NCBI GenBank assembly: GCA_963810095.1
Contig: CAWEMM010000006.1
Location: forward strand, 1,280,001-1,344,000
Direction of reading: 5' to 3'
DNA: 64,000 bases
Source of the DNA: an uncultured Chloroflexia bacterium
GTDB taxonomy: Bacteria; Chloroflexota; Anaerolineae; CG2-30-64-16
A program made the translations under genes and the position numbers. The notes under the pieces are model-generated. The model was not told where the DNA came from. It saw nothing but the letters and a program-made list of their open reading frames with translations, and made no database searches. Shown piece by piece: positions 41,685-56,278 of this stretch (position 1 is its first letter; each line of letters begins with the position of its first letter).

Positions 41685-42350
41685 CTAGTCCAGGGCGCCG
41701 GCCGCCAGCCGGAGGCCGGGCAAGTCACGGAGCTCGATCTTGCGATACCCGAGCTCGACCAGCCCTTCATCTTTAAAGCTGCGCAGAATGGCGCTGATGG
41801 TTTCGCGATAGGTACCCAGCATATCGGCCAGGGCCTGGTGGCTGGTGCCGCGAATCGCCTTCCCCCCGTTGGCCAGCTCGAGCAGCAGGCCGGCCAGTCG
41901 CTCCGGCAGCCGCTTGTAGGCCACTTCTTCCATGCGATTCTCGACCTGCGCCAACCGCTGGCCGACCGTCTGCAACAGCCCCCAGCTCAGCACGGGGTAG
42001 CGCAGCGCCAGCGTCTGCGCCTGGGGCTGGGGCACGGCCCACAGGATACAATCGGTCAGGGCCACGGCACGCACGCACGGATCGACCGCGCCGAGTAGTG
42101 CACCCTCGCCGAACATCGATCCGGGACCGAGGGTCGCGATCGCCAGCCGGCGGCCGTTGGGTCCCTCGCGGATCAACTGTACCCGACCCTTCATCAAAGT
42201 GTAAAGGTTCTTTCCCAATTGCTCGGGATCTGCGACGTGCTGTCCCGCACGAAACGACTGCGCGCTGATTGCTTGCTTGAACTCTGGGTCGTCCTCACGA
42301 AGCTCGATCAGTATCTCCGGCAATGACCTCTGCTTCCCACGATGAACCAT
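41685..42350 (-). CDS. CRP/FNR-family transcriptional regulator
   Basis: LGPGSMFGE cNMP-fold; SHQALADMLGTYRETIS HTH; RBS ggaaggaagg. Confidence 0.92.
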   Translation of the reverse strand: MVHRGKQRSLPEILIELREDDPEFKQAISAQSFRAGQHVADPEQLGKNLYTLMKGRVQLIREGPNGRRLAIATLGPGSMFGEGALLGAVDPCVRAVALTDCILWAVPQPQAQTLALRYPVLSWGLLQTVGQRLAQVENRMEEVAYKRLPERLAGLLLELANGGKAIRGTSHQALADMLGTYRETISAILRSFKDEGLVELGYRKIELRDLPGLRLAAGALD

Positions 42351-42412
42351 GTGTAACCTTCCTTCCTTCCTCTGCCTACAACTCAATACGTTTACCCATA
42401 CAACTGTAAGAA

Positions 42413-42452
42413 ACTATACTACAGAAGATCGCCCACGTCAACGGTTTGTCGA
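42413..42452 (-). promoter_or_regulatory. Sigma70 promoter of the CRP gene with a CarH-like 11-bp repeat over -35
   Basis: TCGACA-AACCG-TTGACG-N17-TATAGT on the minus strand. Confidence 0.7.
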
Positions 42453-42474
42453 ACTCTTAATGTAACCTTAAGCC

Positions 42475-43486
42475 TTACCCGCCATAATCCTCTCGTTCGC
42501 GGCGGATGCGGAGGATCTGGCTGCCTTCTGCAGTGGGGGCCCCGGATATCAACGCCACGATGTGGTTAACGCCGCTGCGGGCATTTTCGCCCAGGAATAT
42601 GCCCGGCACCTGGGTTCGCAGCTCGGGCTGGACGTTGAAGATCCGCCCGCCAAAGGCAAATAGCGGCCTCGGAGCCGGCATGGCCTGAACCGCCCGGGCC
42701 ATGTCCACCAGTCCCGGGAGCGTGTTAGCAGTCGTGGCAGCCATCACGATCATGGCTGGCCGCAAGCGCTCCATCTCTTCGACAAACTGTTCCACCGGGA
42801 CGTTTTGGCCCAAGTAGATCGTGTTAACATTACGGCGGCGCAGCATCAAATGGATCAGCAACAGCCCTAATTCGTGCCAATCCCCCGGTCCGCAGCCCAG
42901 CACGACGAGCGGTCCGCTGTGCGCCTGGGGCGCTGCGTTAATGATCGCGTCCAGCTTGCGCCGAAGATAGTTGCTGGCAAAGTGCTCCGCGGCGGTCGTC
43001 ATCCGGCCTTCGTGCCACAGGTCTCCCACCTGCATCATCGCCGGGGTCAGAACCTGCTCGGCCGTGCTCTCGAGCCCGTAAATTGCAAACGCTTCCTCCA
43101 GCGCTTGGTCCGCAGCCGCTTCATCGTACCGGATTAGCGCGTCGAGCAGGTGCTCCCGCGCCTCCCGGGGTCCGCCGGACTCGCTGCTGCGCCGCTCGCT
43201 CGGACCGCTGTCTGCGGGCCGCCGGTGGGCGAACAGGTTGATCGCCTGGCTGATGCTCATGCCCTCGTCGACACGAGCCCGCAACCACCGCAAGGTAGCG
43301 ATGTCGCTGGCCGAATACAGGCGATATCCACTGTCGGTGCGGCCCGGCGACGAGCGCGCCATAACGCCGCTCCCAAGCGCGGAGCGTGGCTGCAGAGATC
43401 CCGGTCGCCTCGACGACTGCCTTCATGTTGTAGATTGGTTCGTTATCCATCTCGTGATACGGCTCAAGTGCTGAAGATTGGCCCAT
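42475..43486 (-). CDS. carH: CarH/LitR-type MerR regulator with cobalamin-binding domain, copy 1 (frameshift near 43355)
   Basis: [18 protein letters not shown]-x9-EH ([12 protein letters not shown]), DWHELG, YLGQNVP and FGG. Confidence 0.85.
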
Positions 43487-43529
43487 TTTTGCCACCACCC
43501 CCCAAGGACGACCGATTTTGCTAACTCGC

Positions 43530-43585
43530 TTTACAATGTATTTACACTATAGCAGACATTATAAAGTTTGTCAATAGTTTGTTTA
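43530..43585 (-). promoter_or_regulatory. Sigma70 promoter of carH copy 1 with CarH-like 11-bp repeats
   Basis: TAAACA-AACTA-TTGACA-N17-TATAGT with extended TG on the minus strand; also TTTACA-ATGTA-TTTACA on the plus strand at 43530-43546. Confidence 0.75.
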
Positions 43586-43623
43586 ATCTATAGACAGAAG
43601 ACAACTGGGGGCCGAGCGAACAA

Positions 43624-43660
43624 CAAGGGGCCGTGATTCCGGTGGAATCACGGCCCCTTG
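43624..43660 (-). terminator. Perfect 17-bp hairpin after carH copy 2
   Basis: caaggggccgtgattcc-ggt-ggaatcacggccccttg. Confidence 0.75.
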
Positions 43661-43690
43661 GCCCGCTCATGGGGCTTGCCCTGATGATTC

Positions 43691-44654
43691 TCAGTTGAGT
43701 CCGTTCACCAGGTCACGTGCAGTAAAGGCAATCTCGGCGCCTTCGAAGCGTTCGGCCAGCTCGGGGTGTGCGGTGAAGGCCCGGCCGCCGAATACCAGGT
43801 GCGGCTTGGGCTCGGGCAAGTCGCGGACGAGCCCGATAAACCTCTTCCAGCGCGTCCACGCTTTCGCGGGTCGCCGCCGACAGGCACAACATGTCCGGCT
43901 TCAGCTTGCGCACTTCGCGGCAGCAGGTGCTCGGCCGGCACATTTTGACCCAGGTAAATGACGCGCCAGCCGTGGCGCCGCAGGCTCAACGAAACGAGGA
44001 GGATGCCCACGTCATGCCATTCATGCGGACCCGATCCTGTGATGGCGAGCGGGCCCGTGAGCGGCTGTGGGTAGGCATGGAAGAGCGCAGTCAGCCGGCG
44101 CCGCAGGAATGCGGTGGCGAAGTGTTCCTGCACGATGCTGGCCTCGCCGCGGTGCCAGCGGTCGCCAATTTCGACCAGCGTCGGGGTGATGATCTCCTCC
44201 GCGACCACGTCGACGGGGTAGAGCGCAAAGGCTTCGCCCAGCACCGCTTCGGCATGCGGCTCCTGAAACAGGATCAGCGTTTCCACCAGCTCTTCGACGA
44301 TCGTCTCCGTGCCGCGCACGTTCTCGGACGGCCCGACCTGCTGCGCCGCACGCTCGAAGTCCAGCTCGGGCTCTTCTCCGGCACGGTGGCGGATCTCCAG
44401 CAGGGCCACGGCCCGGCTGATCGACACGCCCGCATCGACCTGGTTCTTGAGCCAGCGCAAGCGTGGCGATGTCGCGCTCGGAGTAGAGGCGGTAGCCGCC
44501 ATCGCTGCGCCCGGGCGAAAGCACGCCATACCGTCGCTCCCAGCGCGCGCAGCGTTGCGGGCGCGATTCCGGTTTCCTGCACGACTGTCTTGATCGTGTA
44601 GACCGGGGTATCGTCGTACCCGTTCAAGCGAGGTTCTTCAGCCATAGCGCTCAT
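43691..44654 (-). CDS. carH: CarH/LitR-type MerR regulator with cobalamin-binding domain, copy 2 (several frameshifts)
   Basis: YTIKTVVQETGIAPATLRA, GGYRLYSERDI, W-x9-EH (WHRGEASIVQEH), EWHDVG and YLGQNVP. Confidence 0.8.
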
Positions 44655-46033: not shown

Positions 46034-48861
46034 TTGACTACGATCCTGCCCACCGCCCCGACCGCACCTGTCACGCCTGCCGAGGACGACTGGCACTTTC
46101 AGAGCGCGGCCGAGACTGCCGCCAGGCTGCAGACCGACCCGGCCGCGGGCTTGAGCGCCGCCGAGGCGGCCGCACGCCTTGCACGCTACGGGCCGAACGA
46201 GCTGATCGAGCGCGGCGGCAAGCGGCCCTGGCAGATCCTGCTGGCGCAGTTCACCAGCAAGCTCGTGCTCATCCTCATCGTCGCCGCCGTGGTCTCGGCC
46301 GTCGTCGGCGACTTCAAGGATGCCATCGCCATCCTCGCCATCGTCGATCCTGAACGCCGTGCTCGGCTTCGTCCAGGAGTACCGGGCCGAACAGGCCATG
46401 GCCGCGCTTCGAAAACTGGCCGTGCCGAACGTGCGCGTGCGCCGCGTCGGCCAGGTCATGGATATCTCCGCGCGCGACCTCGTGCCCGGCGACATCGTGC
46501 TGGTCGAGGCAGGCAACCTGCTCCCGGCCGATGGCCGCCTCGTCGAAGCGGCCAACTTGCGCATCCAGGAAGCGATGCTGACCGGCGAGTCAGAGCCCGT
46601 CGAGAAGATCACGGCAGCGCTGCCCGCTTCGTCGGCTGCGGCCGCGCTGGGCGACCGGCGCAACATGGCCTTCATGGGCACCACCGTCACGTACGGCCGC
46701 GGGGCCCTCGCGATGACCTCGACCGGCATGGGCACCGAGCTGGGCCACGTCGCCGAAATGCTGCAGGAAGTGGACGGCGGCCAGACGCCGCTGCAACGCC
46801 GCCTCGACCAGCTCGGCCGCGCGCTGGCGATTGCCGCGGGCGCGATGGTCGTCATCGTGTTCGGCATGGGCCTGCTCATCGGCGAGGACTGGCGGCTGAT
46901 GCTCATGACCGCGATCAGCATGGCCGTCGCCGTCGTGCCCGAGGGGCTGCCCGCGGTGGTCACGATCGCACTGGCGCTCGGCGCGCAGCGCATGCTCAAG
47001 CGCCAGGCGCTCATCCGCAAGCTGCCTGCGGTCGAGACGCTTGGCTCGGTGACCGTCATCTGCTCGGACAAGACCGGCACGCTGACCGAGAACCGGATGA
47101 CCGTCACCATCCTCGACCTGGCCGGCCACCGGCTCGACCTCACCGAGGAGATCCGCCATCGCGAGCCGGTCGTCGTGACCGCCGACCCGAGCGCCGACAT
47201 CGTGCGCACGCCAGCCTTCGCTCGCGCTGCTGCTGATGGGCGGCGCGCTGGCAACGACGCCGCGCTCCAGCCCGTCCGGCCAGCGAGGGCCAGTTCCACG
47301 CCGTCGGCGACCCGACCGAAGGCGCGATGGTCGTCGCCGCGGCCCGTTTCGGCCTGTGGAAAGACCGGCTGAAGCCGCCTACCCCCGCGTCGCCGAGCTG
47401 CCCTTCGACTCGGACCGCAAGCGCATGACGACGGTGCACCGGTGACCGATTGCGACGCATGGATCGGCGACTGTGCGACCTCGGCGACAGCAGCCACGTC
47501 GTGTTCGCCAAGGGCGCCGTCGACAGCCTGCTGGAGGTTGCGACCGGCGTGTGGGATGACGGGCGCAACGCGGCCGCTCGACGCGGCGTGGCGGGAACGC
47601 GTCGCCGCTGCCAACGAGGAACTGGCGAGCAAGGGCATGCGCGTGCTCGGCGTCGCTTTCCGACCCGGCGAACCCGGCGACCTGACGCGGCGAAGACGCT
47701 TCGCCCGACCTCGAGCGCAACCTGACCCTCGTCGGCCTGGTCGGCATGATCGATCCGCCGCGTGCCGAGGTCAAGGAGGCGGTGCGTCACGTGCCGGGCG
47801 GCCGGCATCCGGCCCGTGATGATCACGGGCGACCATCCGCTGACCGCCCGGCAGATCGCGCACGAGCTCGGCATCAGCGCGAACGGGCGGATCCTGACCG
47901 GGCAGGAACTGGCGCCGCATGTCCGTGCAGGACCTGGAAGGCGTGGTCGAGGACGTCTCGGTCTACGCCCGGGTGTCGCCCGAGCACAAGCTGAACATCG
48001 TGCAGGCGCTGCAGAACCGCGGCCACGTCGTCGCGATGACCGGCGACGGCGTCAACGACGCGCCGGCGCTCAAGCGGGCCGACATCGGCGTCGCGATGGG
48101 CATCACCGGCACGGACGTCTCGAAAGAAGCGTCCGAGATGGTGCTGCTGAACGACAACTTCACGACCATCGTCGCGGCGGTCGAAGAAGGCCGCGCCATC
48201 TACGACAACATCCGCAAGTTCATCCGCTTCTCGCTGGCGGGCAACCTGGGCAAGGTGTTCGTGGTGCTGGCCGGGCCGCTGCTGGGCATGCCGCTGCCGT
48301 TCGCGCCCTTCCAAATCCTGTGGATGAACCTCGTGACCGACGGCGTGCTCGGCCTGGGCATGAGCGTGGAGCCGGCCGAGCGCGGCGCCATGAAACGCCC
48401 GCCGCATCCGCCCGCCGAAGGCGTCTTCGCCCGGGGCCTGGGCCTGCAGATCACCTGGATGGGCCTCCTGATCGGCCTGGTCACGCTGGGCGTCGGCTTC
48501 TGGGCCTGGAGCACCGGGCAGGCCGCCTGGCAGACGATGATCCTCACCACCGTGATCTTCGCGCAGGTCGTGCAGGCCCACGTGGGCCGTTCGAGCCAGC
48601 GAATCGGTCTTCCGGATGAATCCGCTCTCGAACAGGCCGCTGCTGCTGGCCAGCCTGGCGATCGTCGCGCTGCAGCTCGTCGTCGTGATCTACGTCGAGC
48701 CACTGCACAGGCTCTTCGAGACCGTGCCGCTGACCGCGCAGCAGCTGGGCGTGACGGTCCTGGCGTCGCTGGTCATCCTCGTCGCCGGCGAGATCGAAAA
48801 GGCTCATTCGGCGGCGCGGCCGGTCGGGTTGAAGGAGGAAGAAGATGGAACAGACGCTTGA
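46034..48861 (+). CDS. P-type IIA (Ca2+-type) cation-transporting ATPase (multiple frameshifts)
   Basis: [59 protein letters not shown] and [10 protein letters not shown]. Confidence 0.9.
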
Positions 48862-49373
48862 ACGTCAGCAAGCCCCGGACGAGCAGTGACCGTCGACATG
48901 CGCACCCGGCGCAACCCCATGCACCAGGTGCTGGAAAGCGGGCGCTACCTCATCCTGATCGGCGTCCTCGTCAGCCTGGTCGCTTCGGCCGCCGCCTTCG
49001 TCTGGGGCGCGTACAAGACCGTGCTGCTCGTGGTGAAGATGGTCGCGGACCTCAAGGCCAAGGCCGTCGCGAACCGGCTTGATCGCGCTGATGGACAAGT
49101 TCCTGATCGCCGCCGGGCCTCTACATCTTTGCCGTCGGCATGTACGAGCTATTCATCGGCGACCTCGATGCTGCCGCCCTGGTTGGTGATGCACAACCTA
49201 CACCAGATCAAGAGGCCGCCTGAGCAGCATCGTGATCCTGCTGCTCGCGATGGTGTTTCTCGAGCATGTCATCGAGTGGCGGGACGCGCAGGCAGTGCTG
49301 CAGACGGGAATCGGCATTTGCCGTCATGATCGCAGCCCTGATCGGATTCAATCTGTTCGGCGAAAAGGATTGA
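48845..49373 (+). CDS. YqhA/UPF0114-family membrane protein (frameshifted)
   Basis: RBS gaaggagg; RYLILIGV, MDKFLIA, GMYELFIG and PWL..H.L..IK across frames. Confidence 0.7.
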
Positions 49374-49391
49374 TCCGGCCGGGCCGCCGCA

Positions 49392-50501
49392 TCAATCGTC
49401 GCGCACACCCTCTTCCACGTAACGCACCAGCTCGCTCACGCTCAGGTTTGTAATGCCCAGCTTGTCGAGCGTGCGGCCCGCGTCGCCAGTAGTCGGTGCG
49501 GTGCACGATGCAAGCCAGCCCGATGATCGCATCCATCCCGCGCACAGAGACCCCGTAACGCTGTCCCAACGCCGCAATCGGCACCAGGCTCATCGGGACG
49601 TCCTCGAAGATATAGCGATGGTTGAGCGTGGGTGGCGCCTGGATGCCGTAGTACCCCGGCTGGTTGTGGATCGCTTCGTTCAGGTTTTCCCCCGTCGCGT
49701 CGTACGCCATCTGCAGCCACTCCAGCGCAGTCTGGGCCCGGATGCCCAGCGCGGCCGCCACCGTGACGCGCTCGCGGTCGAGCACATCCAACACGTGTGA
49801 AACCGAAGGCGTGACCCCGTCGATGTAGAACTGAAAGTTGCCGTGCGTCGCCTCGATCCAGCCCGCGTTCAGCAGGGTCAGGGCCGGGTGGAAAATCGCG
49901 CCCATGTTGTCGAGGCTGGTCTTCAGCACGTTGCCCCCGTCGATGAACTGCGGATATGCCGGGCACAGGAGGTCGATGACCTGCCCGTGCGTTTCGCCGG
50001 CAAGGCGGCCAGGGGCACCGCCTCCTTGATGCGGAAGATGCGTGCCTGCGCCGGCCCGTCCGAACGGCTGGCATAGATGAACGTGCCTGCCTCGGCGATC
50101 GTCACGTCGGCCCGGCACCCCTGGTCGCGGAGCACCTTGGCGAACTCGATCGCGCCGCACGTGCGGCCCGGGTTGAGAATCAGCGTCTGGCCGTCCCGCA
50201 GGTGGGGGGCACAGCCGGCGGCCACCTCCCGGTGCGCGGACGAAGGCGTCACCACCATGATCACCTCGGCGCGTGACAGGGCTTCGCCGTAGTTCGAGGT
50301 AATGCCGGCAAGCCGGCCGAAGCCGGATGGACCCCCGTCCCCACATTCGAGGTCCAGCCCTCCGCGCTTGATGATCGGCGCGACCCGTTCCGGCGTGCGG
50401 TTGAACAGCATGGTGGGGAATCCCATCAGTGAGAGATGCGCCGCCATGGCCTTGCCGCCATGCCCGGCGCCGATCACCGTGTAACGCGTTTGTGTCTGCA
50501 T
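49392..50501 (-). CDS. NAD/NADP-dependent octopine/nopaline (opine) dehydrogenase family protein (frameshifts near 50000 and 49480)
   Basis: IGAGHGG Rossmann motif, LNPGRTCGA, DNMGAIFHP, FYIDGVTP, DRER and HRYIFEDVP. Confidence 0.9.
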
Positions 50502-50532
50502 CTATCTGTCCTCCTACCCGGAGACATCGCCG

Positions 50533-50601
50533 ACCACAGAGACGCCAGGACACGGGGTGGGTGGAGGCGTCTCAATCCGGGCGTCATTGTGTCTTTGTGT
50601 T
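50533..50601. repeat. Family B repeat between the B12 enzyme and opine dehydrogenase genes
   Basis: accacagagacgccaggac...gtcattgtgtctttgtgtt. Confidence 0.6.
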
Positions 50602-50613
50602 GGAATCCATCGG

Positions 50614-52251
50614 TTAAGCAAGCGCTGACGCCGCCAGCCGTTCGCGTTCGCCAATCGACCGGCCGCTGGCCGGATCGACCGCAACGCACACGCCTCGGCC
50701 GTCGATACGCGTCGCCGTGGCGCCGCGGGCGAACGGGTTGTTTTTGAGCTGCGGCGCATCGAGGATGCCCGCCGTGACCGCCCCACTGAGCGTCGCCGGG
50801 TCGGTCAGTGGGTCTGTCACGTCCGGACCTGCCAGCCCACGGATCGCTTGGAGCAGCACCTCCGCTTCGGCGATCAGCTCGGCCTTGCGCTCCTGCACCC
50901 GCGGGTCTCGGGTCATGTCGGGCGCACCGCGCACGGCATTCTCAATAGCCCTGCGGGCAACCCGGCAAGCAGCAATGACGTCCTCGGCGGTAGCCGCATG
51001 GTGCGCCTCGGTGTGGCCCACCACGTGCACGACGTGGGGCTTGAGGGCCATTTGCAGGTAAGTGGCTGCGGCCAGGTGGCCGCGGGCCGCCTCGGGGTCC
51101 AGCGGGTGGCTCAGCAGGCCAAGCCGCACCTGTCGCCACACCCGAAACTCCGGGCCTAACGCCTCCACCATCTCGAGACAGGCCAACATCTTCGCCAGGT
51201 CCATCGCATCCGAAAGGCCGGGCGGGCTGTTGAACATGAGCTGTGCGATGTAATCGCGCACGCCGGCGGCCCGTGCGTTATAGGCCGACAGATACGCGCT
51301 CGCCACGAAAGTGACGTCGGAGGCATCGCGCATGCCCCAGTGGTGCGGCTCGTTGAGTTCCACCGGCAGCCCGCGCTCGCCGTACCAGCGCATGACGGCC
51401 TGGTGCTCGCGGATGGAACCCTCCAGGTCCCACGGCCCGCGGCCGTCCATCCGGTTGAACCAGAAGAGCGGAATGGCGCACCACACGTTGTTAATCGTGT
51501 CGAGATACATTTCGGCCAGGGGGATGAAATCGTCCGTGCCCGAGTACGTGCGCATGAGCGGATAATTGCCGCACCGGCTGGCCTCGAAGAGCGCCCGGTA
51601 GTCCTCGGGCGAACGCACCGGCACCCCGCCGGCGCCCCGCCGCCGCGGGTCCTGGCGCTCGGGGTGAAAGAAGTTCTCCTGCGCATCCTGGTCGACGCCG
51701 AGGGAGATCACGTCGAGCACGCGGGCCGCGGCGATCTGCGACACGCCGTCCAGCGTCGCCTCGAGCGTGGGGAGCCCGAAATGGTGTCGCAGCAGCGGAT
51801 ATGGCGCCTTGAACGCAATGCGTTCGACCAGGGTTTGGGGCGGCACGACCGGCGCCCCGTCGACCCGGCTGCCGCGCAGGTACGCCAGCACGTCCTCGGG
51901 GCTCTCCCAGCCGTCGAACACCGCGTCGAAGAAGGGCGCAAAGCGCCGGGCGGCTGCGCCCACGGGGGGGGTCCCCCCGAAGGCGAAGCGAACGCCGGCC
52001 AACCGCAGGTCGTCGGCCGCTTCCGCAAACTCGGCCAGCAAGCGCTCGCCGGTTTCCGCCGTCAGACGATAGGAAACCCCCACAAGCTCGGCGTCGTGTT
52101 GGCGCGCGGCCGCGAGGACGGCTTCGATGGGTGTGGCCGGGCCGAGGAAGAGAGTTTGCCACCCGGCCTGTTCGGCCAGCCGGAGAAAGTTCGACACGCC
52201 GGCGACGTGGACGCACTCGCCCAGCGCAGCGGCAACGACGAGGTGTTGCAT
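50614..52251 (-). CDS. Cobalamin-binding enzyme (N-terminal B12 domain plus a large uncharacterised catalytic domain), 545 aa
   Basis: ECVHVAG (DxHxxG variant), FLG, VGVSYRL and FGG; no CxxxCxxC radical-SAM motif; intact frame. Confidence 0.85.
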   Translation of the reverse strand: MQHLVVAAALGECVHVAGVSNFLRLAEQAGWQTLFLGPATPIEAVLAAARQHDAELVGVSYRLTAETGERLLAEFAEAADDLRLAGVRFAFGGTPPVGAAARRFAPFFDAVFDGWESPEDVLAYLRGSRVDGAPVVPPQTLVERIAFKAPYPLLRHHFGLPTLEATLDGVSQIAAARVLDVISLGVDQDAQENFFHPERQDPRRRGAGGVPVRSPEDYRALFEASRCGNYPLMRTYSGTDDFIPLAEMYLDTINNVWCAIPLFWFNRMDGRGPWDLEGSIREHQAVMRWYGERGLPVELNEPHHWGMRDASDVTFVASAYLSAYNARAAGVRDYIAQLMFNSPPGLSDAMDLAKMLACLEMVEALGPEFRVWRQVRLGLLSHPLDPEAARGHLAAATYLQMALKPHVVHVVGHTEAHHAATAEDVIAACRVARRAIENAVRGAPDMTRDPRVQERKAELIAEAEVLLQAIRGLAGPDVTDPLTDPATLSGAVTAGILDAPQLKNNPFARGATATRIDGRGVCVAVDPASGRSIGERERLAASALA

Positions 52252-52386
52252 TGGAAACCCCCCTGGCGGACGGGAAAAGAAACCCGGCTGCCGGCCTTGG
52301 GGGCTGCGGACGGACAACCGGGACGACTTGCTATATTCGAGCAGCGCGGCTGCCTAAGGGCAAGCCCACTCATTCTGTAGGGTCGC

Positions 52387-52494
52387 ATCCTTCGACTGCG
52401 GCACGCCAGCTGCGCTGGTGCCTCCGCTCAGGATGCCTGCGCTTTAGCATCCTGAGCGGAGGGCGGTCCGCAGGACCGACCGCAGTCGAAGGAT
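52387..52494. repeat. Family E REP-like inverted pair (TCCTTCGACTGCGG..CTCCGCTCAGGATGC / GCATCCTGAGCGGAG..CCGCAGTCGAAGGA)
   Basis: Two 15-bp perfect arm pairs, each unit with its own internal hairpin. Confidence 0.8.
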
Positions 52495-52506
52495 AACAAT
52501 CCTGAC

Positions 52507-52540
52507 AATCAGTTCGATCCGTTCAATCAGTGTCCCATTT
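52507..52540. repeat. Right half of a family A repeat
   Basis: aatcagttcgatccgttcaatcagtgtcccattt matches the right arm at 37241-37273. Confidence 0.65.
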
Positions 52541-52544
52541 CAGG

Positions 52545-53240
52545 TCAGATGCGCTCGAATCGTGCGGCTTCGAGCACGAACACGGTCGCGCCATACATCG
52601 GCATGCCCGACTCGACCGGGTTCGCCTGCGCCCGCTGCCGCACGTTGGCGTCGATGATGCGGAGAACGTCGTCCACCTGCGGCTGCTCCACGCCGACCAA
52701 CAGGGTGACGTTGCCGCGGCGGAAGAAGCCGCCCGCCGTGTTCATGCGGGTCACGCGGTAGCCTGCCGCGATCAATCCTCGTGTGACGGGCTCGGCATCG
52801 TCGGCCGCGACGATGCTGACAACCATGTGCATTGGAACTCCTCCTGCGAGCGGCGCTGTGAAGGCCGGGGAATCCGCCCGATTGGCGTAGGGTTCGCCGC
52901 GCCCGAGTCGCTCGAATTGCGAAACAGGGATCATGAAGACCGTCGCGCCGCCAACGATGACTTCGAGAGGATAGGCCGGCGTCGACATCGAGAGGTGCGC
53001 AGGCTCTGCCGTCGAAGGAACGGGGTTGATGTAGCGTTTGCGCGTGTGGCACGTCTTGCGCACCACCTCCAGCACCCGCTCGACCTCGTCCTCCTGGACG
53101 CCGACCAGGCAGGTCACATTTCCGCGCGAAAGAAAGCCGCCCACCGTGTTAAGCCTGGTGACACGTACGCCGGCATTGTTGAGACGCCTCGTTAGGATAT
53201 CCGCGTCCTCGTTTTGGATGATGAGGAACATCAAATACAT
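52545..53240 (-). CDS. Tandem two-domain cyclic-di-AMP receptor (DarA/PstA-like x2), 231 aa
   Basis: Two copies of TRxNTxGGFxxRGNVTxLVGV and GATVF joined by a ~24-aa linker. Confidence 0.9.
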   Translation of the reverse strand: MYLMFLIIQNEDADILTRRLNNAGVRVTRLNTVGGFLSRGNVTCLVGVQEDEVERVLEVVRKTCHTRKRYINPVPSTAEPAHLSMSTPAYPLEVIVGGATVFMIPVSQFERLGRGEPYANRADSPAFTAPLAGGVPMHMVVSIVAADDAEPVTRGLIAAGYRVTRMNTAGGFFRRGNVTLLVGVEQPQVDDVLRIIDANVRQRAQANPVESGMPMYGATVFVLEAARFERI

Positions 53241-53396
53241 GACGGTCTCCGAGGCAGGGGAAGTGCTTACTCTTGTACCCGCAACCGGGTCCTTTGTCAA
53301 GTGTGTCGAGACACGGCGGCTTAAGAAAGAGGACATGGGCTGCGTCATTGCGCGGGGCGCAGGCGTGTGCTATTCATAACAAACGTGAGAGGACCA

Positions 53397-54224
53397 ATGC
53401 AGTTACTCAATTCCGTCGATTACATTTTTTCGGGTGGGTTGGCCGCGGACGCACCGCACGACCTGGCGGTGGCCGCCGTCCTTGCCGGTCGGGCCGCCGG
53501 TCGGGTGTACGCCGACGACCCGGACGCGCCACGCCTCGCGCTCGTGTCGCCGCATTGGGGGCGGCTCTATGTGCTGGGCCGGGCGAATGCGCAGGCGGCA
53601 TCGGCACTGGCGGCGCTCGTGCAAGAGCAGATCACGCCGGCGGCCCGGGCCGCCGGCGCATCGGTCTTCACCCTGGCCTGCCCTCCCGACTGGGAGCCCT
53701 ACCTGTCGGAAGCGCTGCAGAGCACCCGTGCCGTGCCGGCCGACCGCCAGTATTATCGTTGGGCCGGCGAAGCCTATCCTCGCTTCGAGCCGCCCGACGG
53801 CTTCACCCTGCTGCGCGTCGACGAAGGGCTGCTGGCCCGCCCCGAAATCCGCGACCTGCAGCTCCTGGCGGAGGAGATGGCCTCCGAACGGACATCCGTC
53901 GACGACTTCCTGGCGCGCAGCTTCGGCGTTGCTGCCCTTTGGCAGGACCGGCTGGCCGGCTGGTGCCTGTCCGAGTACAACACCGAGACCCGGTGCGAGG
54001 TGGGCATCGCGACGCTGGAGCCGTTCCAGCGTCGCGGCCTGGCGTCCGCGCTGGGCTGCGCCTTCCTTGACATGGCACGGGCCCAGGCCATGTCGGAGGT
54101 GGGCTGGCACTGCTGGAAGCGCAACGTCCCCTCTGCCGCCAGCGCGCTGAAGATCGGCCTGGCCCACGTGGCAGACTATCCGGTTAGGTTCGGCTGGTAT
54201 AATGAGAGCGATGCGCCCCGCTAG
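53397..54224 (+). CDS. GNAT-family N-acetyltransferase
   Basis: EVGIATLEPFQRRGLA and NVPSAASALKIG. Confidence 0.85.
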   Translation: MQLLNSVDYIFSGGLAADAPHDLAVAAVLAGRAAGRVYADDPDAPRLALVSPHWGRLYVLGRANAQAASALAALVQEQITPAARAAGASVFTLACPPDWEPYLSEALQSTRAVPADRQYYRWAGEAYPRFEPPDGFTLLRVDEGLLARPEIRDLQLLAEEMASERTSVDDFLARSFGVAALWQDRLAGWCLSEYNTETRCEVGIATLEPFQRRGLASALGCAFLDMARAQAMSEVGWHCWKRNVPSAASALKIGLAHVADYPVRFGWYNESDAPR

Positions 54225-54279: not shown

Positions 54280-55597
54280 ATGAAAACCGCCTCACGTCGC
54301 CGCTGGTCAGTCGTCGCCATCTTCTTTGTTTTCATGCTGCTGCACCAGTCTGACAAGCTCCTGATCGGCACCCTGACGCCGAACATCATGGCCACCTTCG
54401 GGATCACCATGACCGCAATGGGCGCGGTCTCGACCGGCGCGCTGATCGTTGGCGCCATCTTTTATCCCTTGTGGGGCTACCTTTATGACCGCTACGGCCG
54501 GGCCAAGCTCCTCGCGCTGGCCTCCTTCCTGTGGGGCGCGACAACCTGGCTGAATGCGCTGGCCCCGACCTTCCGCACGTTCCTGGTGACCCGCGCCAGC
54601 ACGGGCATCGACGATTCGAGCTACCCCGGCATCTACAGCCTCGTAGCCGACTACTTCCCCCCGCGCATGCGCGGCAAGGTCTACGGCATTCTCCAGCTCA
54701 CCATGCCGCTCGGATTCCTCTCCGGCATGCTGTTGGCCCTCGCCCTGCGCGATACCATCGGCTGGCGCGGCGTCTTCTTTATCACCGGCTCGCTGGGCGT
54801 GCTGCTCGCCATCGTCATCTTCTTCGGAGTCAAGGAGGCGCCCCGCGGCGCAAGCGAGCCCGAGCTCGCAGGCGTCGAGGGCGCGCAGACCTACCATTTC
54901 AACTGGCAAACCGCCCGCGGTCTCTTTGCCAAGCCGACGCTGCGCCTGCTCTTCGCCCAGGGCTTCTTCGGCGTCTTCCCCTGGAACGTCATCACGTTCT
55001 GGTTCTTCACCTACCTGGAGAAGGAGCGGGGCTATACGGGCACGTCCCTGTTCATCACCATGGGGTTGGCCGTCATCGTCCTGGCCGCCGGCTATCCCAT
55101 CGGCGGTGCGCTGGGCGACGCGCTTTCCGCCGCGACCCCGCGGCCGGGCCGTCGTCGCCACGATCGGCGTCCTCCTTGGCGCCGTGCTCATGTTCATTAC
55201 TATGTCGGTGCCGACGGCAAATCAGGGCCTGTTCCTGGTCATGCTGGCGCTGACCGCGCTGTTCATCCCGTTTGCCTCGCCAAACGTCACCTCGACCGTG
55301 TATGACGTGACCCTCCCCGAGGTGCGCAGCACGGCCCTCTCGATCCAGTACTTCATCGAGTCGGCCGGCGCGGCCCTTGCGCCGCTGATTGCCGGCTACA
55401 TCGCCGACCGGTCGTCGCTGCACGACGCCATCCTATGGATCTGCGTGTCGACGTGGCTGGTCTGCGCCGTGTGCTACGCCTTCGTCGCGCGCTTCGTGCG
55501 CGGGGATATCGCGGTGCTGCACGGCCAGCTGCAAGCCCGCGCCAGCGAGCAACGGGCGGCCCAGCAAGCCGGCGCGGAGCCCGCGGTTTTGCTCTAG
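54280..55597 (+). CDS. MFS transporter (frameshift near 55125)
   Basis: GYLYDRYGR motif A, ADYFPPRMRG and PEVRSTA; about 12 TM segments. Confidence 0.9.
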
Positions 55598-55765: not shown

Positions 55766-56278
55766 GTGAAAGAAACGATCGTCCTGGTCATGCACGGAGT
55801 GCCGCCGCGCGACTTCCCGCCGCGGGAGATCGCCGAACTGATGGGGTTGCAGAACCGGCTGGAGCACGGCGCCGTGCCACCCCACGAGCGGCCGGCCGCA
55901 CAGGCCCGCTTCGAGGAGCTCGACGCAAAGGTACGGGGCTGGCCCAGACACGCCGAAAACGACACCTTCTACATGGCTTCACAGGAATTGGCCGCGGAGC
56001 TGGGGGCCGCGACAGGCCGCGAGGTCATCCTGGCCTTCAACGAGTTCTGCGCGCCCGCCGTGCCGGCCGCGCTGGATGCTGCGGCGGCAGGCGGGGCCGA
56101 GCGCGTCGTCGTGATCACGCCCATGCTCACCCCCGGCGGCGAGCACTCGGAGGTCGAGATTCCGGCCCAGGTGGACGAGGCACACGTCCGCCACCAGGGC
56201 GTCGAGTTCGCCTACGCCTGGCCCTATGCCATGGCCGACGTCGCGGCCTTCCTGGCCCGCCGGATCGAGCAGCTGTAA
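55766..56278 (+). CDS. cbiX: CbiX/SirB-type small tetrapyrrole chelatase
   Basis: LVMHG, AFNEFCAP and PMLTPGGEHSEVEIP. Confidence 0.75.
   Translation: MKETIVLVMHGVPPRDFPPREIAELMGLQNRLEHGAVPPHERPAAQARFEELDAKVRGWPRHAENDTFYMASQELAAELGAATGREVILAFNEFCAPAVPAALDAAAAGGAERVVVITPMLTPGGEHSEVEIPAQVDEAHVRHQGVEFAYAWPYAMADVAAFLARRIEQL

Follow-up and report, generated by a model that had tools for sequence, protein, structure and literature searches.

The DNA analyzed here, called the window, is a stretch of 64,000 nucleotides on contig CAWEMM010000006.1 of an uncultured Chloroflexia bacterium (assembly GCA_963810095.1). Its minus strand carries a pair of genes, the first for a single-chain cobalamin (B12) protein of 545 residues and the second, immediately downstream on the same strand, for an opine dehydrogenase (Table 1). 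An initial annotation made from the sequence alone had described this arrangement, and all motifs that it quoted for the B12 protein (ECVHVAG, SYRL, GG, RHHFG, RTYSGT, ELNEPHHWGMR, and HVVGHTEAHH) were found in the translation. The N-terminal B12 domain was confirmed by Pfam, in which PF02310 was the sole match (residues 5-112; 38.8 bits versus a cut-off of 32.1). The dehydrogenase was likewise recovered, matching PF02317 (Octopine_DH) with an expect value (E) of 2.3e-47 and 161.2 bits versus a cut-off of 30, and its N-terminal part matched NAD-binding folds. In the assembly, the dehydrogenase gene is spread over three frames, with shifts near 49982/49983 and at 49475-49477. Short-read contigs from other public runs align to this stretch with few differences. 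No RNA run was listed among the sequencing runs that contain this DNA, and these runs share at most 0.21 of the words sampled from it. Contigs from runs X1 and X4 contain an extra G behind position 49982, and those of run X2 have one base fewer at 49475 or 49477. Because both changes restore the reading frame, we deduced that the breaks are assembly indels and that the gene is intact in nature. The same kind of breakage was seen elsewhere in the assembly, in a P-type ATPase gene (46034-49082) and in a paralogous B12 gene on contig 8.

The fold of the B12 protein was analyzed with a model predicted by AF2 (AlphaFold2) from an alignment of 34 sequences (pLDDT, the predicted local distance difference test score, 92.2). 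A comparison with glutamate mutase, the aminomutases, and methyltransferase barrels had been proposed in the initial annotation; when it was run on the predicted model with Foldseek, glutamate mutase E was closest (E 4.5e-15 for the barrel). The best structural match was glutamate mutase E 1cb7_B, with a VIA-align Z score of 33.5 and a root mean square deviation of 3.2 Å over 378 residues at 17% identity. Lysine 5,6-aminomutase (Z 28.6-30.9), ornithine 4,5-aminomutase (27.4-27.9), and methylmalonyl-CoA mutase (up to 22.9) followed. The N-terminal domain matched GlmS 1i9c_A with a TM score of 0.75 and corrinoid proteins with Z scores of about 16. Alignment of the family profile by hhalign to a true GlmE homologue from another Chloroflexota genome (502 bits to PDB 6h9e_B) gave a probability of 82-84%. 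The description of the enzyme as single-chain and mutase-like is thus supported by the fold, by this profile alignment, and by sister proteins that are fused to the reactivase MutL. These sister proteins, Chloroflexota entries of about 1220 residues from metagenome-assembled genomes (MAGs) that are named 'glutamate mutase L', contain the same B12 domain and barrel, arranged in the same order and 36-39% identical along most of the query, but have an added reactivase domain that the family of the window protein does not share. None of 301 sampled genomes yielded the MutL-fused form at a threshold of E 1e-100, which is probably too strict. Other relatives are fused to an ATP-grasp ligase or to a peptidase M15 domain.

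Two other enzyme types were rejected. A B12-dependent radical SAM enzyme was ruled out by the absence of the cluster motif CxxxCxxC from the protein, in agreement with what had been claimed before. For a corrinoid methyltransferase, no catalytic methyltransferase barrel was present among the matches listed, and the entries from methyltransferase systems were corrinoid-binding proteins that matched the B12 domain only.

The label 'orphan', which the enzyme had received in the initial annotation, has to be dropped. At E 0.001 or better, 7265 homologues were found among 8000 candidates scored, and they fall into 849 clusters at 50% identity; the enzyme is uncharacterized, not orphan. Its nearest homologues are 73-87% identical and derive from Chloroflexota MAGs. 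According to single named records or automatic labels, the family extends to Bacillota, Bacteroidota, and an Asgard archaeon, and within Chloroflexota it includes Roseiflexus. The clusters of P0132 and P0174 include records from Rikenellaceae and from a Promethearchaeota (Asgard) MAG, the latter mislabeled 'methionine synthase', which implies that the family crosses the domains of life. Conservation was counted in 147 full-length sequences. His15 and Gly18 occur in all of them and Gly93 in 139. The proposed base-off/His-on binding mode therefore stands as far as the His ligand and the later glycines are concerned, but the signature reads C-x-H-x-x-G and not D-x-H-x-x-G; the canonical Asp is retained in a distant clade of proteins of about 620 residues.

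Linkage of the two genes was analyzed in 80 loci from Chloroflexota genomes, in 80 metagenome loci found via remote family members that share 43-61% identity with the window protein, and in a phylum sample of 400 other Chloroflexota genomes. A dehydrogenase gene was present in 76 of the 80 genome loci, and in 74 cases it follows the B12 gene directly on the same strand. Of the four other loci, two are cut at a contig end and two (L019 and L052) truly lack the gene. It adjoins the B12 gene in 73 of the 80 metagenome loci, and in six of the seven exceptions the sequence ends no more than 109 bases from the gene, which leaves L137 as the one true exception. In the phylum sample, the B12 gene was detected in 24 genomes, and an orthologous dehydrogenase (63-80% identity) adjoins it in 23 of them. 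In G362, the one exception, the B12 gene is broken. A further 44 genomes of the sample contain only distant dehydrogenase paralogues with 41% identity or less. The co-occurrence on which the earlier proposal had depended is thereby found in all three sets, and the pairing is far beyond chance.

The two genes are also inherited together. Over 148 loci, the mutase precedes the dehydrogenase in 96 and follows it in 52, and according to the mutase tree this order has switched three times or more. Spacers in related loci mostly measure 30 nt or less or are replaced by overlaps of 4 or 1 nt. The distance matrices of mutase and dehydrogenase were correlated with r 0.918, a value reached by none of 999 permutations, although kinship of sequences inflates such statistics. 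The dehydrogenase tree reproduced each of five clades of the mutase tree, with three long-branch rows staying ungrouped. A second, paralogous copy of the unit resides on contig 8 of the same genome. In full-text searches, which did not cover most subscription journals, no paper on a pair of B12 mutase and opine dehydrogenase was found, in keeping with the earlier remark that no characterized pathway with it was known. The pair is real and undescribed, and its mutase is a new variant within the adenosylcobalamin (AdoCbl) isomerase family. Carriers of the mutase gene amount to 25 of 401 sampled genomes, yet identity stays at 65-80%. Inside the Chloroflexota clade (L007-L086), the mutase tree departs from taxonomy, with rows from Roseiflexus, Chloroflexia, and Thermoflexia scattered among Anaerolineaceae. 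The sparse occurrence at high identity and the non-taxonomic tree suggest gene transfer within the phylum.

The dehydrogenase is of the type of N-(1-D-carboxyethyl)-L-norvaline dehydrogenase (CENDH) from Arthrobacter sp. 1C (1bg6). The intact paralogue from contig 8 matched CENDH over its full length with E 1.1e-77. In the alignment, H204, R295, and D300 are the counterparts of CENDH His202, Arg292, and Asp297, which we take to be the catalytic residues, and they were kept in 130, 130, and 129 of 130 dehydrogenase sequences, respectively. The glycines of the GxGxxG motif (G11, G13, and G16) were found in 124, 129, and 130 of the same sequences. No paper pairing CENDH with a B12 enzyme was found in the literature searched. 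An opine dehydrogenase also completes the pathways of the metallophores staphylopine and pseudopaline (CntL/CntM), small molecules that are assembled from an amino acid and pyruvate or 2-oxoglutarate. Those pathways differ from the pair described here in the dehydrogenase subfamily and in the partner enzymes; a nicotianamine-synthase-like gene was not among the recurrent neighbors scanned.

Apart from the dehydrogenase, no gene is common to more than 17 of the 80 genome loci. A recurring neighbor is an asparagine-synthetase-like (AsnB-like) gene for about 448 residues, which was observed in three arrangements, in 12 of the 80 genome loci and 22 of the 80 metagenome loci. It is present in 9 of the 25 carriers, in six of them adjacent to the pair, and also at the contig-8 locus. 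Its synthetase domain resembles that of AsnB (E 5e-94, below the cut-off). Glutamine-hydrolyzing asparagine synthetases start with M-C-G. The partners from two very distant loci (L175:9049-10395, minus strand, and L134:6034-7380, plus strand) start with M-S-x-I-x-G instead and lack some 50-60 residues of the N-terminal domain, which makes hydrolysis of glutamine by these proteins unlikely. Ddl-like ATP-grasp genes accompany the pair in four genome and four metagenome loci. One distant clade (L124, L131, L141, L154, and relatives) has the pair, with the dehydrogenase first, between dnaE and a histidine operon (HisS/HisZ-like, hisG, hisB, hisF, and hisIE), all on one strand.

These neighbors bear on the question whether the pair serves catabolism. 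The dehydrogenase might split an imported opine-like secondary-amine dicarboxylate, and the unusual amino acid set free might then be isomerized to a common one. CENDH as the closest characterized relative fits this idea; its source bacterium was reportedly grown on opine-like secondary-amine dicarboxylates. Genes for CitMHS, LacI, and RpiR near some of the loci fit as well. Against it stand the recurrent partners, which are amide-forming (AsnB-like, Ddl-like, and the ATP-grasp fusion), and the lack of any transporter conserved across the related loci. Furthermore, the c-di-AMP (cyclic di-AMP) riboswitch encountered at some loci (see below) is placed, in a review, upstream of transporters and cell-wall enzymes and not of catabolic operons. 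We consider a catabolic function unlikely.

The active site of the mutase does not vary. Twelve residues of the barrel were invariant in all 147 sequences: R155, H157, Q191, R234, Y236, D269, R271, E298, R308, R376, H409, and E415. Positions in GlmE were verified in the comparison with the GlmE homologue, and the roles given for them here are those that we presume. In the hhalign columns, GlmE E171 corresponds to D269 and GlmE E330, presumably the contact to the adenosine ribose, to E415. The columns of R66, R100, and R149, which we take to form the arginine claw binding the carboxylates of glutamate, are occupied by H157, Q191, and Y236. R155 and R234 stand two residues ahead of two of the claw columns. 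Judged from these alignments, the active site looks like a precise one, related to yet distinct from that of glutamate mutase. Because the three-arginine claw is not kept, the substrate is probably not glutamate itself. A Chloroflexota protein (L169:1495-2934, minus strand) matched glutamate mutase E with 502 bits but carries Leu where R149 and E171 would stand, and it, too, may be something other than a glutamate mutase.

A fused but otherwise true glutamate mutase, converting glutamate to 3-methylaspartate, with the opine dehydrogenase replacing methylaspartase as the next step, has to be weighed at this point. The glutamate mutase of Clostridium cochlearium (GlmS/GlmE or MutS/MutE; 1cb7, 1ccw, 1i9c, and 6h9e) shares the B12 Rossmann domain with its His ligand and the TIM barrel. 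GlmE heads the list of structural matches, the residues corresponding to E171 and E330 are conserved, and some relatives, such as P0130 (27.5 bits versus 26.6), pass the cut-off of the glutamate mutase E family PF06368. In addition, the synthetase domain of the AsnB-like partner is near AsnB, which acts on aspartate, and no convincing methylaspartase was found in the 25 carriers. The search for MAAL_C in these genomes gave weak partial matches only, the best with 32 bits over 92 of 249 positions, as did 11 of 14 control genomes. The clostridial enzyme consists of two subunits and relies on MutL, whereas the window enzyme is one chain and no MutL exceeded the cut-off in the genome. The former is partnered with methylaspartase and the latter with an opine dehydrogenase; the B12 signature has Asp in one and Cys in the other. 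Replacement of all three glutamate-holding arginines by invariant His, Gln, and Tyr, the identity to GlmE of just 17%, and the nearly equal score of lysine aminomutase render this alternative improbable.

The structural scores of lysine 5,6- and ornithine 4,5-aminomutase also raise the possibility that the enzyme shifts an amino group as these do and that the dehydrogenase oxidizes the new amine. Fermentation of lysine and ornithine follows this logic of a mutase and then an NAD(P) dehydrogenase, and many carriers are anaerobes according to their record titles. These aminomutases depend on pyridoxal 5'-phosphate (PLP), which is anchored via a Lys of the B12 domain. Their barrel is similar (Z 27-31), but the conserved Lys is not found in the family of the window protein: within residues 1-130, Lys did not exceed a frequency of 0.71 in any column, and that maximum was at residue 3. 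GlmE moreover scored higher by 2.6 Z units. An aminomutase of this kind appears quite doubtful.

A last alternative regards the B12 domain as a sensory or regulatory module, for example for light sensing of the CarH type, and the barrel as something other than a radical enzyme. The Cys in place of the signature Asp, the lack of a reactivase in the genome, and the CarH/LitR-like B12 regulators 6-9 kb away in the window could be read in this way. The whole barrel, on the other hand, matches AdoCbl isomerases only, the adenosine-contacting Glu is invariant, sister proteins are fused to MutL, and CarH-like genes are not recurrent neighbors of the pair. A sensor is very hard to reconcile with these findings.

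The explanation that we consider likely is that the two genes form an operon for an AdoCbl-type isomerase and an opine dehydrogenase that act in turn on a single di- or tricarboxylate derived from an amino acid, with the formation of an amide as a frequent further step. A single polypeptide would perform the role of both glutamate mutase subunits. Its B12 domain would hold AdoCbl via His15, and the barrel would sit over the cofactor and there bring about a radical 1,2-rearrangement of an amino-(di)carboxylate. The dehydrogenase would use NAD(P)H to couple the amino group of the compound with a 2-oxo acid, for example pyruvate, yielding an N-carboxyalkyl amino acid; alternatively, it would split such a compound. 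In many lineages, the AsnB-like enzyme without the glutaminase cysteine might amidate or close a carboxylate. Use of AdoCbl is suggested by the fold, by E415, by the MutL fusions of relatives, and by a PduO-type adenosyltransferase encoded in the same genome. The order of the two steps and the class of substrate, which the remodeled arginine claw indicates is not plain glutamate, are what we infer from the comparisons above.

A bolder variant has the mutase act on an opine or its imine and not on the free amino acid. A pyruvate-derived C=N or carboxyethyl group would then play the part of PLP and permit a PLP-independent B12 shift, for instance from an N-(1-carboxyethyl) to an N-(2-carboxyethyl) amino acid. 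The AsnB-like partner lacking the Cys would amidate or cyclize the product, for which beta-lactam synthetase, an enzyme that cyclizes carboxyethyl-arginine, offers a parallel, and a drop in c-di-AMP would turn the system on. We regard this variant as speculative and rather improbable.

The reference to c-di-AMP arises from the context of some loci. The c-di-AMP riboswitch RF00379 was found with about 100 bits in the operon leader of four Anaerolineae loci (4 of 80), and at each of them it is the only one in the respective genome. A covariance model (R1) matched only the four loci from which it had been built. Of 160 related loci, 5 have homologues with CdAMP_rec domains adjoining the pair, and such a gene is situated upstream of the pair in the window. 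The contig-8 copy (L175:1-19901), consisting of mutase, AsnB-like, and dehydrogenase genes, with the mutase gene broken into three frames, lies in an island of cation-transport genes, with those for Mrp subunits, CBS proteins, Na+/H+ and Na+/Ca2+ exchangers, CitMHS, and SBF, and with a gene for an RpiR regulator. A physiological tie of the pair to salt or osmotic homeostasis governed by c-di-AMP in Chloroflexota is conceivable on these grounds, and we put it forward tentatively.

Several results weigh against the proposed operon function or parts of it. Position 13 of the B12 signature is Cys in 143 of the 147 sequences and Asp in only four. The window protein gave no match to PF06368 at E 0.01 or better; its relatives reached 15.3-27.5 bits versus a cut-off of 26.6, and a precomputed match exists for many close homologues. 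A sequence-profile search of the PDB reached B12 domains only and not GlmE, and the residue mapping to GlmE rests on the alignment of 82-84% probability. In the genome, which is 88.5% complete, the best candidate for a MutL-type reactivase scored 18.9 bits versus a cut-off of 27, and a canonical MutE over the cut-off was not detected. The loci L019, L052, and L137 have ample flanks yet no dehydrogenase. LacI and CitMHS, each near 11 of the 80 genome loci, and RpiR would suit catabolism as well as synthesis, and the clade beside dnaE and the histidine operon has no transporter nearby. Concerning c-di-AMP, RF00379 was found neither in the window nor in any of the 25 carrier genomes of the phylum sample, and the link is a minority feature among the loci.

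The coordinates of the pair and of the surrounding features are compiled in Table 1.

Table 1. Features of the window around the gene pair (positions counted from the first nucleotide of the window)
Feature	Position	Strand	Basis
Single-chain cobalamin enzyme gene, 545 aa from ATG	50614..52251	minus	Open reading frame (ORF), translation, PF02310, AF2 model, fold matches
B12-binding Rossmann domain, residues about 1-130, C13-x-H15-x-x-G18, S60-Y-R-L63, G93	51862..52251	minus	PF02310, GlmS match
TIM-barrel domain, AdoCbl-isomerase type, residues 134-541	50629..51852	minus	Closest to glutamate mutase E
Spacer between B12 gene and dehydrogenase gene, 112 nt	50502..50613	minus	Gene coordinates
Opine dehydrogenase gene, CENDH type, three frames in assembly	49392..50501	minus	PF02317 and NAD-binding folds
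Frameshift site 1, one base missing from window in G/C run	49982..49986	minus	Sequence and contigs of runs X1/X4
Frameshift site 2, one surplus window base in G/C run	49475..49477	minus	Sequence and contigs of run X2
Upstream 267-aa ORF, two tandem CdAMP_rec (DarA/PstA-like) domains, context only	52545..53348	minus	PF06153 E 8.4e-50, 2 stretches
GNAT gene	53367-54224
MFS gene	54280-55305
CbiX gene	55982-56224

The GNAT, MFS, and CbiX genes to which the initial annotation had drawn attention are all present in the window, but none is recurrent in the related loci scanned, so they lie outside the conserved unit. The stretch that separates the c-di-AMP receptor gene from the operon contains a nested hairpin of 136 nt at 52375-52510 (-89.6 kcal/mol, z -9.9). 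This hairpin belongs to a palindromic repeat that is scattered through the genome, where at least nine contigs have matches to it, dozens in all and up to 92% identical, and it was rejected as a regulatory RNA for this reason. Rfam models gave no match in the window at the gathering score, a scan of 49000-52700 for promoters and terminators yielded nothing exceeding shuffled sequences, and tblastn against plasmids returned no match.

On the far side of the pair, the P-type cation ATPase gene (plus strand) occupies at least two frames: the ORF 46034-47236 encodes its N-terminal domain, and the ORF 47919-49082 its hydrolase and C-terminal domains. Its frame breaks are probably further assembly indels. 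Beyond it, three genes on the minus strand encode a Crp-family regulator (41685-42386), a MerR plus B12-binding protein like CarH/LitR (42475-43362), and a second protein with B12-binding_2 and B12-binding domains (43705-44529). By its domain content, the cluster at 41685-44529 looks like a light- or B12-responsive regulatory unit.

To our knowledge, only about a dozen AdoCbl isomerase reactions have been described and new ones are rare, the physiological roles of bacterial opine dehydrogenases are little characterized, and osmoadaptation of Chloroflexota has been little studied. Against this background, the family described here is large and widespread, it has a near-obligate opine dehydrogenase partner, and its invariant active site differs from the one in glutamate mutase. 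Being small and self-contained, the pair can be assayed directly in vitro. Defining its reaction would add to B12 chemistry and would place bacterial opine dehydrogenases in a pathway, and a metabolite controlled by c-di-AMP in Chloroflexota might come to light as well. A mutase acting on an opine or imine, if true, would represent a new type of B12 reaction and a new class of stress-induced small molecule. The persistence of the pair across very distant microbes points to an as yet undescribed two-step amino-acid pathway.

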